From: a virus
Taxonomy: Duplodnaviria > Heunggongvirae > Uroviricota > Caudoviricetes
Reading direction: 5' to 3' (one strand)
DNA length: 6,780 bases
IMG/VR virus record: IMGVR_UViG_2690316348_000008
Shown piece after piece: positions 1 through 3,000 of this stretch. Numbering within the stretch: position 1 is the stretch's first letter; each line of letters opens with the position of its first letter. A program made the position numbers.

Positions 1-3000
1 GGGAATATCTACGGCAGCAAGCCAGTAATGGGTTAAGTGATAACAGGTGTCTGGAAATATAGGGGCAAATCCAGCGTTCATCAGCCCCCGCATTGCCGAC
101 AGGATCACAGACGGGGGGCGCAACTGGTTGTCGTTCAACTGGCCCAGCTACCGTTCTTGTATCAGAGGTGTGGCTGCATGACAACACCAGTCTGGCGTAA
201 TGATGACCTGGAAGGCGCTGTCATTGGCGCATTCTTTCTGCGTGGGGCAGATCATGAAGTGATGGATATTCTGATCACACTACCGGCGGACATTTTTTCT
301 GTACGAGCGTATCGGGATATCTACACAGGCATCTGCAGACAGGCCCGTGTTTCAGGAGTGATTGACCCCGTGCTGTTGTGTAATGAGATGCCGGAACTTG
401 CCCCGGTGATTACTGATACCGGGCGTAAAACCTGGGTGAAGTCTTCACTGGAGCACTATGTTGCAGCGTTGCGGCGCAATGCCGCACTGCGCGATGCAGA
501 AAAAACACTGAATGAGGCGCTGCAGAAATTACGTGATGCGCATACCTGTGAAGCAGCTGAAGATGCCCTGAAGGATGCGCAGAACATGATGGTCACACTG
601 TCGACAGGAAAGGGCGTCATTCAGCCGGTACATATTGATGATGTGCTTCCGGAAGTGGTTGAGCGTGTTGAATGCCGGAATCAGGGGCTGGAGAAATCCA
701 GGACGTTGATGACCGGTATTGATGAACTGGACGCAAAAACAGGCGGTATGGAGCCCGGAGACCTGGTATTCATTGCCGCCCGTCCTTCGATGGGGAAAAC
801 CGAACTTGCGCTGGACATCATCGACAAGGTGACTGAGCAGGGGCATGGTGTGCTTCTGTTCACCATGGAGATGGCGAACATCCAGATTGGTGAACGTATG
901 GTGTCTGCGGCTGGAGGGATGCCAGTATCACGCCTGAAATCTGTGGCTCACTTTGAAGATGAAGACTGGGCGCGTTTCTCACAAGGGGTGGGGCGGATGA
1001 CCGGGCGCAATATCTGGATGGTGGACCAGGCGAACCTGACCATTGATGAGATATGCGCAACAACGAAACACCATCTGATTAAACATCCGGAAACGGCGCT
1101 GGTGGTGGTTGATTATCTCGGGCTGATAAAAACCCGAACCACGGGGCGTCATGACCTTGCCGTGGGTGAAATCTCAAAGGGGCTTAAAGGCCTGGCAAAA
1201 TCCGGTGGTTTTCCGTTGATTGCGCTGAGCCAGCTCTCCCGCGGTGTGGAGTCCAGACCCAATAAACGTCCCATGAACTCAGACCTGAAAAATTCCGGAG
1301 AAATAGAGGCGGATGCAGACATCATTCTGATGCTTTACAGGGATGAAGTGTACAACCCGGATACACAGGCTACAGGCATAGCAGAAATTAATATCACGAA
1401 ACAACGTAACGGTTCTCTGGGGACGATTTACCGGCGTTTTTATAACGGACATTTTCTGCCTGTGGACCAGGAAAGCGCACAGGTTCTTTCCACCCCAATG
1501 CGGCAGCCCCAGCCGCGCAGATACAGCAATACACGTACCGACAGCAGTAAGATGGAGCGTTTCTTTTGAACAACCAGACAATGACTTTTACCTCTGAACA
1601 ATTGCGTAAACACGCGCAGGAAATGTTGCGACAGGCGGAACAACTGGAAAAAACAGGTGTAACAAAAGATGCCATTCGTCGGGATATGGTGCCAGCGCTC
1701 AGGGAACTGATGCAGGCGAAACATCGCGCACAAAAAGCGGTGGATGAGCTCGTTGATTGTGTGGCAGAGCTGGAAACCAAAGTTGGAAAGTTTGAAAAAA
1801 TGGTGCAGGAGGTGCTGCGCTGATGCGCCATGAGTTTATTTTACCTTATCCGCCGACGGTGAATACTTACTGGCGACGTCGTGGCAGCACATATTTTGTA
1901 TCAAAAGTTGGTGAGCGTTATCGCCGTGATGTGACGCTAATTGTTCGCCAGCAGCGGCTGAAATTAAACCTGTCCGGAAGGCTGGCGATAAAGATTATTG
2001 CAGAGCCACCGGATAAGCGCCGTCGTGACCTGGACAATATCCTGAAAGCACCACTGGATGCGCTGACGCATGCCGGACTACTCATAGACGACGAGCAGTT
2101 TGATGAAATCAATATTGTGCGCGGTCAGCTCGTTCCTGGTGGGCGACTGGGCGTGAAGATTTATGAAATCACAGGTGATAACGATGGCGCGTGATATTCA
2201 GCAGGTTATGGAACGGTGGGGGGCTTGGGCTGCAAACACTCATGAAGATGTATCCTGGGCGTCGATCGCTGCTGGTTTTAAAGGGTTAATTCCGTCGAAA
2301 GTGAAATCACGCCCTCAGTGTTCTGATGATGATGCAATGATAATTTGTGGCTGTATGGCCCGGTTGAACAAGAAAAATCAGGATTTGCACGATTTGCTGG
2401 TGGATTATTACGTAGGTGGAATGACTTTTATGAGTCTGGCACGGAAACATGGGTGTTCGGATACCTGTATTGGCAAGCGCCTGCAGAAAGCGGAAGGGGT
2501 TATTGATGGCATGTTGATGATGCTTGATATCCGGCTGGAGATGGACAGATACGTAGAACGAATTATGTAGGTGCTTGACCAGACACATTGTCCGGGGCTA
2601 TATTCCTCACGCGCCAGCAAAATCTGGCGTCGGGATTGGAACCCCGGATAGAGACCGCGACAGACACACGCCGCGAGCGTGTTTTTTATTGTCGTATGCA
2701 CGCGCACATCTGAATTATGGTGGGGCGCATGGGGGAGCTGAAAAGCTCGCCGGTCGGTTTCCCGGTAGTTCCAACCCTGTGCGTCTCACCACCCGATGAT
2801 TGGAACCTGACGGTGTTGACAGTTTCAGGTTTGCAGTTTACATTTCCCCGCGGTGCTCAAAACACCTCGAAAGCGGTATCCACACCCGATAGCCATGTGG
2901 TTTTTTTGTGTCCAGAATTCTTGGTTTATGACCGGGTGTGCGGCTAATACAATACCAGCAATGGAAATACGCCCGCCGACTTTCGACGGTTTTGAGCGCC

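Follow-up and report, generated by a model that had tools for sequence, protein, structure and literature searches.

The window analysed here, a stretch of 6,780 nt from the viral record IMGVR_UViG_2690316348_000008 (Caudoviricetes), opens inside an insertion sequence. Frame 3 of the opening bases carries the C-terminal codons of InsD/OrfB (positions 3–59, ...EYLRQQASNGLSDNRCLEI), followed by a TAG stop codon at 60–62, and the first 73 bases end ...GAATATCTACGGCAGCAAGCCAGTAATGGGTTAAGTGATAACAGGTGTCTGGAAATATAGGGGCAAATCCA. Alignment of positions 1–73 (plus strand) with the last 73 nt of the E. coli K-12 feature annotated as 'insertion sequence:IS2A' (1331 bp, with insC1 and insD1) gave 67 identical positions out of 73, the final 27 nt all being identical. 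The right inverted repeat (IRR), which is 41 bp long in IS2 (PMC3299598), occupies positions 33–73, and the IS2 terminus is found at 62–73 as the 12-mer GGGGCAAATCCA. A first-pass annotation made from the sequence alone had recognized an IS2-like right end at this place, as the K-12 alignment confirms; it had given the terminus as 60–73, a trivial offset. Judged by this alignment, the element at the start of the window is IS2, a member of the IS3 family.

From base 74 onward, frame 2 is open (in fact from position 44, with a GTG codon at 47) to a TGA at 179–181 that overlaps the ATG of the following gene at 178–180 in an ATGA junction, just as the first reading had it. An open frame of 108 nt is by itself within the range of chance, and it is homology that makes this one real. 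Positions 74–181 are identical to a prophage of E. coli RMDEC465 at 105 of 108 nt and to phage phiP27 at 100 of 108 nt, whereas in the same three-way alignment the 73 nt before base 74 match these intact phage loci at only 7–9 positions out of 73. Homology therefore breaks off exactly at 73/74, the very position at which IS2 ends. A Megablast search with positions 74–1600 retrieved phiP27 (94.4% identity) and many E. coli prophages (up to 96.9%). In these, the first ~108 nt fall in a gene that carries the annotation 'DnaC-like helicase loader' or 'ATP-binding protein' and is followed by one annotated as 'replicative DNA helicase'.

The stub thus comprises the last 35 codons (74–178) and the TGA stop codon (179–181) of a gene for a DnaC/IstB-like AAA+ helicase loader, translating as AFISPRIADRITDGGRNWLSFNWPSYRSCIRGVAA. 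Thirty-two of these 35 residues are invariant across the stub and the two intact loaders aligned with it. The intact proteins, 252–292 aa long, match the IstB_IS21 domain (PF01695) at an E value of about 1e-15 and also PF00308, and the stub belongs to the PF01695 loader family by homology. The AAA+ core is missing from it: Walker A (GSCGTGKN) and Walker B (IIDEVG) both lie upstream of the breakpoint in the intact proteins, which rules out a functional loader as the product of the stub. The proposal that this frame is the 3′ end of an upstream replication gene is accordingly borne out at both the nucleotide and the amino acid level, and on this homology the stub is a dead pseudogene fragment of a DnaC-like loader gene. 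Its truncation is already known to the databases, in which it carries the label 'ATP-binding protein, partial'. The stub is matched identically by two NCBI partial proteins assigned to '[Shigella sonnei]', P0179 (33 aa) and P0180 (38 aa), the latter of which starts with ANPAFISP... and thereby includes codons derived from the IS2 inverted repeat.

The gene following the stub (178–1569, plus strand) codes for an intact DnaB-like replicative helicase of 463 aa. The DnaB_C domain (PF03796) spans residues 177–422 with an E value of 7.8e-73, and PF00772 gave a weak match (E = 1.3e-4, scoring 22.3 bits where the cutoff is 23). In length the protein equals its relatives; it is free of internal stop codons and is identical to intact relatives at 451 and 448 of its 463 residues. 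A GAGG Shine-Dalgarno motif, read from the sequence at 165–168 (plus strand), precedes the ATG by 9 nt and has been kept inside the stub. The gene pair, its order and the ATGA overlap are those of L18/L19 of phiP27 (DnaC-like loader and replicative helicase) and of the RMDEC465 module, in which the loader likewise lies directly upstream of the DnaB-type helicase. In contrast to these modules, the window keeps only the last 35 of the 252–292 loader codons, and its downstream content differs, with RusA, an ORF6N protein and four tRNAs and no stx.

Searching the assembly collection for an exactly identical helicase yielded more than 3500 blocks; one locus among them, HE616528.1, is ascribed to S. 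sonnei 53G in the literature. Positions 1–4552 of the window are 100% identical to S. sonnei loci, and the window differs from every S. sonnei genome examined by the duplication of an IS911 fragment at 4553–5661. Two ORFs running across the junction of this fragment had no entry on record. Downstream of the helicase gene, the locus contains an 85-aa ORF followed by genes for RusA, antiterminator Q, the ORF6N protein, four tRNAs, holin, lysozyme and Rz, and further genes for an HNH protein, the small and large terminase subunits and a portal fragment of 343 aa cut off by an IS4. The phage DNA thus amounts to ~10 kb and is bounded by insertion sequences on both sides, IS2 on the left and IS4 on the right, for which reason draft assemblies yield contigs of ~10 kb. 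The 5′ part of the loader gene and all early phage genes are absent at this locus: where the phiP27 and RMDEC465 modules carry regulators, anti-repressors and an HTH/LvrA-like protein, S. sonnei has IS2 and ypjA instead. As all native phage DNA ahead of the loader stub is gone, the helicase gene is indeed cut off from its native upstream region, as had been proposed. We consider the locus to be the remnant of a lambdoid prophage that cannot replicate or be induced. The replication defect anticipated in the first-pass annotation is in keeping with an IS-bounded remnant of ~10 kb whose helicase has neither loader nor initiator nor origin.

In the S. sonnei loci, including that of 53G, the distance from the left inverted repeat (IRL) to the IRR is exactly 1331 bp, and the termini read TAGACTGG... 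(IRL) and ...GGGGCAAATCCA (IRR). The full 1331-bp copy of 53G aligns with K-12 IS2A without gaps at 97.6% identity, above the 95% threshold applied for IS2; both have the same length and termini, and both code for OrfA and OrfB with HTH and rve domains. The genes called in the S. sonnei element code for proteins of 121 aa (PF01527) and 301 aa (PF13276, PF00665 and PF13683), or for a 409-aa fusion, corresponding to an OrfA with an HTH and an OrfB with a DDE/rve core, of which the window itself holds the OrfB C-terminus and its stop codon.

The two sides of this IS2 are unrelated. In 53G, the bases ahead of the left inverted repeat read ...GGCAGTGCTTTAGTTGC, and this left flank is the chromosomal autotransporter gene ypjA (ypjA/ehaD, adhesin-like), 99.5% identical to that of E. 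coli and lying in its usual backbone context, glaH-ygaQ-ileY-ypjC-ypjA. The five bases adjoining the element are GTTGC on the left and GCGTT on the right, and hence form no 5-bp target duplication. This absence speaks against a simple insertion and not against the identity of the element as IS2. Perfect duplications flank the two control copies: GACAC/GACAC around a second, inverted IS2 that some strains carry within an IS4 located a few kb downstream, and ATTAC/ATTAC around K-12 IS2A, which differs from the S. sonnei copy in being a simple insertion with the halves of yaiX on its two sides. Inspection, in the S. sonnei loci, of the DNA upstream of the window start, which the first-pass annotation had recommended, thus recovered the expected IS2 left end, whereas ypjA stands where the 5′ part of the loader gene should have been and the 5-bp duplication is missing. 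Both IS2 junctions are identical in 14 chromosome-scale S. sonnei assemblies, and the right junction is also present in a draft contig. None of 5426 complete E. coli genomes contained the junction between IS2 and the stub, the best matches in them beginning at base 74. An exact-match scan of the GTDB species representatives with a 45-nt junction pattern gave 0 matches, in a set where S. sonnei presumably has no separate representative.

These observations argue that the junction is the product of an IS2-associated rearrangement and not of a simple insertion, given the unrelated and unduplicated flanks. We conclude that positions 1–181 very probably represent the left border of a prophage remnant fixed in S. 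sonnei that arose by such a rearrangement, most likely a deletion. At this border, a complete 1331-bp IS2 links the 5′ part of ypjA, adjoining its IRL, to the final 35 codons of the loader gene, adjoining its IRR. The most likely route would be a deletion that arose through homologous recombination of two IS2 copies or next to a single one, a mechanism that we infer from the structure of the two junctions. Such a deletion would have removed the 650–770 bp at the 5′ end of the loader gene as well as the entire early region (integrase, immunity and initiator), and would have left the helicase gene with its own Shine-Dalgarno sequence and without loader, initiator, origin or native promoter.

The first-pass annotation had instead read the locus as a loader gene interrupted by the insertion sequence, a model in which the 5′ half of the gene and a 5-bp duplication would be found on the other side of the element. 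A break placed exactly at the IS2 terminus is what any IS2 insertion gives; nevertheless, the other flank is ypjA in 14 assemblies, and GTTGC faces GCGTT, whereas the control copies of IS2 carry perfect 5-bp duplications. In the S. sonnei genomes under study, simple insertion is accordingly refuted, and we regard it as extremely improbable as an account of this junction. Even less credit is due to a chimeric join made during assembly: copies of insertion sequences are classic sites of misassembly, but both junctions around the full IS2 are the same in 14 chromosome-scale assemblies made independently, the right one recurring in a draft contig as well, which makes an artefact practically negligible.

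An inversion or translocation between two IS2 copies deserves more attention, since the neighbourhood is clearly rearrangement-prone: right beside the remnant lies an IS-bounded inversion polymorphism, in which, depending on the strain, either bamE-recN-nadK or raiA-pheA-tyrA comes next after the IS4. Furthermore, if the gene order of K-12 is taken as the reference, as we assume it can be, the remnant seems inverted with respect to the ssrA side, its orientation relative to ypjA and bamE being opposite to the one that prophage integration at the neighbouring ssrA would be expected to give. Such an orientation hints at a history of several steps, perhaps with an inversion among them. Shigella is also reported to undergo IS-mediated rearrangement at high rates (PMC8072062), which points in the same direction. 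Under an exchange of this kind, the 5′ part of the loader gene and the early genes would still be present at other places in the S. sonnei chromosome, the former next to another IS2 (...GCGTT) and the 3′ part of ypjA next to an IS2 right end (GTTGC...). However, among the cluster members read, the S. sonnei proteins of this loader are C-terminal stubs of 33–38 aa, and in this sample no fragment of the N-terminal part that stops at the breakpoint was seen. A full-length loader of 299 aa that is rarely found under the name S. sonnei falls in a different cluster, and the other partial loader proteins retrieved in a protein search with the intact loader end at contig ends and not at the breakpoint. 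Scans of metagenomes for the reciprocal junction (loader 5′ end, GCGTT and IS2 IRL) gave 0 matches, as did the control scan for the real junction, which deprives the former result of weight. The protein records suggest that the 5′ part of the loader gene is gone from S. sonnei, and we consider an inversion or translocation that preserved it unlikely.

Whether by deletion or otherwise, the rearrangement placed the helicase gene downstream of an element known to carry promoter components. The left end of IS2 contains a weak indigenous promoter, and an outward −35 hexamer in its right end pairs with the left-end −10 in the minicircle to form Pjunc, in which a 17-bp spacer, made of 16 nt of the IRR and 1 additional nt, is mandatory (PMC3299598). 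Fusion promoters in which the IS2 right end is combined with a flanking −10 are also known, for example at ampC and acrEF (PMC9330008). In the window, the outward −35 (TGGAAA, 52–57, positioned here from the geometry of Pjunc) is intact, and in this respect the locus resembles both Pjunc and the fusion promoters. It differs from them downstream: the hexamers located 16, 17 and 18 nt further on, GCGTTC, CGTTCA and GTTCAT, match TATAAT at 0, 1 and 3 of 6 positions, respectively, leaving the stub without a usable −10 at these spacings. Since no −10 stands at the required spacing, a fusion promoter is unlikely to be formed. A sigma-70 consensus scan of IS2 and the junction likewise detected no promoter-like site on the plus strand, and the IS-derived promoter invoked for the helicase in the first-pass annotation finds no support in these data. 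One promoter-like site on the minus strand and one hairpin within the helicase coding region, which came up in this promoter and terminator scan, were dismissed because their counts were at or below shuffle expectation.

IS2, the truncated ypjA and the helicase gene are all co-oriented, and weak read-through from insCD or from the truncated ypjA is the sole plausible source of helicase transcription that we could identify by inspection of the locus; any expression from it would be low. Translation appears to have suffered as well. A chimeric ORF of 44 codons (47–181, plus strand) starts at GTG47 within the IS2 right inverted repeat and runs through the stub to the TGA at 181, and no Shine-Dalgarno sequence is visible ahead of GTG47; the ORF is probably not translated. 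With InsD terminating at position 62 and the chimeric ORF having no visible ribosome-binding site, the translational coupling afforded by the ATGA overlap would be lost.

A contrasting interpretation would have IS2 transcribe the orphan helicase gene, through a hybrid promoter or by read-through, and S. sonnei keep its product as useful. The intact helicase ORF with its own Shine-Dalgarno sequence, the orientation shared with IS2 and ypjA, and the fusion promoters that IS2 right ends form at ampC and acrEF (PMC9330008) are all compatible with this view. Against it stand the 0 to 3 matches out of 6 offered by the hexamers 16–18 nt from the −35 in the IRR, the negative plus-strand promoter scan and the missing loader and initiator, and the helicase gene itself has been disrupted in two S. 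sonnei genomes (L014 and L017). There, an element of 1263 bp, 99.6% identical to sequences annotated as IS600, splits the gene after window position 410, which argues against selection for the helicase. The common ancestor of S. sonnei dates back only to the late 17th century (PMC7373316); together with the IS600-split copies, this means that an intact ORF needs no selection to be explained. We therefore judge a helicase retained for its usefulness to be very unlikely, and we infer that the gene has no function. A weaker variant, in which helicase made from read-through transcripts, perhaps with the chimeric ORF aiding its translation, would exert some effect at the level of the host, seems highly unlikely too; were it correct, the effect might concern replication restart or the replication of a superinfecting phage, for example.

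Overall, the first-pass reading holds for the IS2 end, the truncated replication gene, the orphaned helicase and the defective prophage, has to be abandoned for the simple interruption, and finds no support for the IS-derived promoter. The favoured rearrangement, most likely a deletion, makes the junction an ordinary, textbook case of IS-driven prophage decay, an event of a known kind. Shigella has seen an expansion of IS1, IS2, IS4, IS600 and IS911, the S. sonnei chromosome carrying a median of 286 IS sites (PMC7373316), and as one among roughly 300 such sites the junction has little wider importance. Its practical use lies in annotation, where the 108-nt frame should be entered as a pseudogene, the fragment left of a DnaC-like loader, the helicase should be marked as orphaned within a remnant that does not replicate, and the IS2 as a rearrangement endpoint instead of a simple insertion. 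In addition, the junction of truncated ypjA, IS2 and truncated loader gene, absent as it is from the E. coli genomes searched, provides a stable S. sonnei-specific marker.

Finally, the IS2 copy itself was compared with others. The copy on the ypjA side differs from a second IS2 isoform of the same genome at 32 sites spread over its full length, so that a chimera of isoforms A and B is not obvious, and recombination between two like copies of IS2 would be expected to leave no trace in such a comparison. IS3-family copies in E. coli genomes and on plasmids of ~290 kb from strains such as CFSAN029787 are 99.9% identical to the 53G element. The IS2 alleles of Shigella and enteroinvasive E. coli (EIEC) are known to differ from E. 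coli chromosomal alleles (PMC7373316), and the near-identity to the copies on ~290-kb plasmids, as against 97.6% to K-12 IS2A, fits this published Shigella/EIEC allele group.

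The window differs from the S. sonnei loci that carry the same prophage remnant in a region spanning 4249-5661, where a fragment of IS911 lies between two copies of a direct repeat. The fragment (window 4553-5359, minus strand, 805-807 bp) is the left end of the element, extending from a point internal to orfB through orfA to the IRL terminus …GTGCCACTTCA. It is flanked on both sides by a 300-nt direct repeat (window 4249-4548 and 5358-5657, 99% identical). All of the S. sonnei loci compared (19/19) contain a single copy of the corresponding 304-bp segment and lack IS911 at this place, so the window carries an apparent 1109-bp structural variant with the arrangement A-ΔIS911-A, which may be an assembly artifact.

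Upstream of this region, four tRNA genes form a cluster (window 3804-4114), with the Q/ORF6N genes on one side and the holin gene on the other. Their anticodons are CAT, Arg-TCT, Thr-TGT and Gly-TCC, the CAT 'Met' tRNA being annotated as Ile in relatives. In phiP27, stxA2e follows the equivalent tRNA genes; the remnant in the window contains no toxin gene at this position.

Other insertion sequences distinguish the S. sonnei loci from one another. The helicase gene is split in two genomes by a 1263-bp element 99.6% identical to annotated IS600 (L014 4135-5397; L017 about 4137-5399). The break corresponds to window 407-410, a 4-nt overlap between the ends of the two aligned helicase pieces flanking the element. 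Only some strains contain a second, inverted copy of IS2 (L015 16154-17484; L018 16153-17483; L014 16156-17485), which is inserted in the IS4 element that truncates the portal gene and is surrounded by a perfect 5-bp duplication, GACAC. This copy represents a different isoform, with 32 differences from the IS2 adjacent to the loader stub.

The right flank of IS4 also varies with the strain (L014-L018, 15100-20498), consisting of bamE-recN-nadK on the minus strand in some and of raiA-pheL-pheA-tyrA-aroF in others, which suggests an inversion polymorphism of about 25 kb bounded by IS4. The ssrA-smpB-ratAB genes, located between ypjA and bamE on the K-12 map, were not seen at the remnant site in the L014-L018 loci. 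On the chromosomal side of the stub-adjacent IS2, the truncated ypjA' ORF (459 aa; L005 7202-8581) reads into the element and ends at a TGA stop codon within its left inverted repeat.

The cluster search using the intact helicase loader as the query also recovered P0138, a full-length 299-aa loader named 'AAA family ATPase [Shigella sonnei]' and found on a few contigs. P0002, the representative of its cluster, shares 91% identity with the query. The occurrence of a full-length loader under this species name indicates that some S. sonnei isolates harbor, elsewhere, a related phage whose loader gene is intact.
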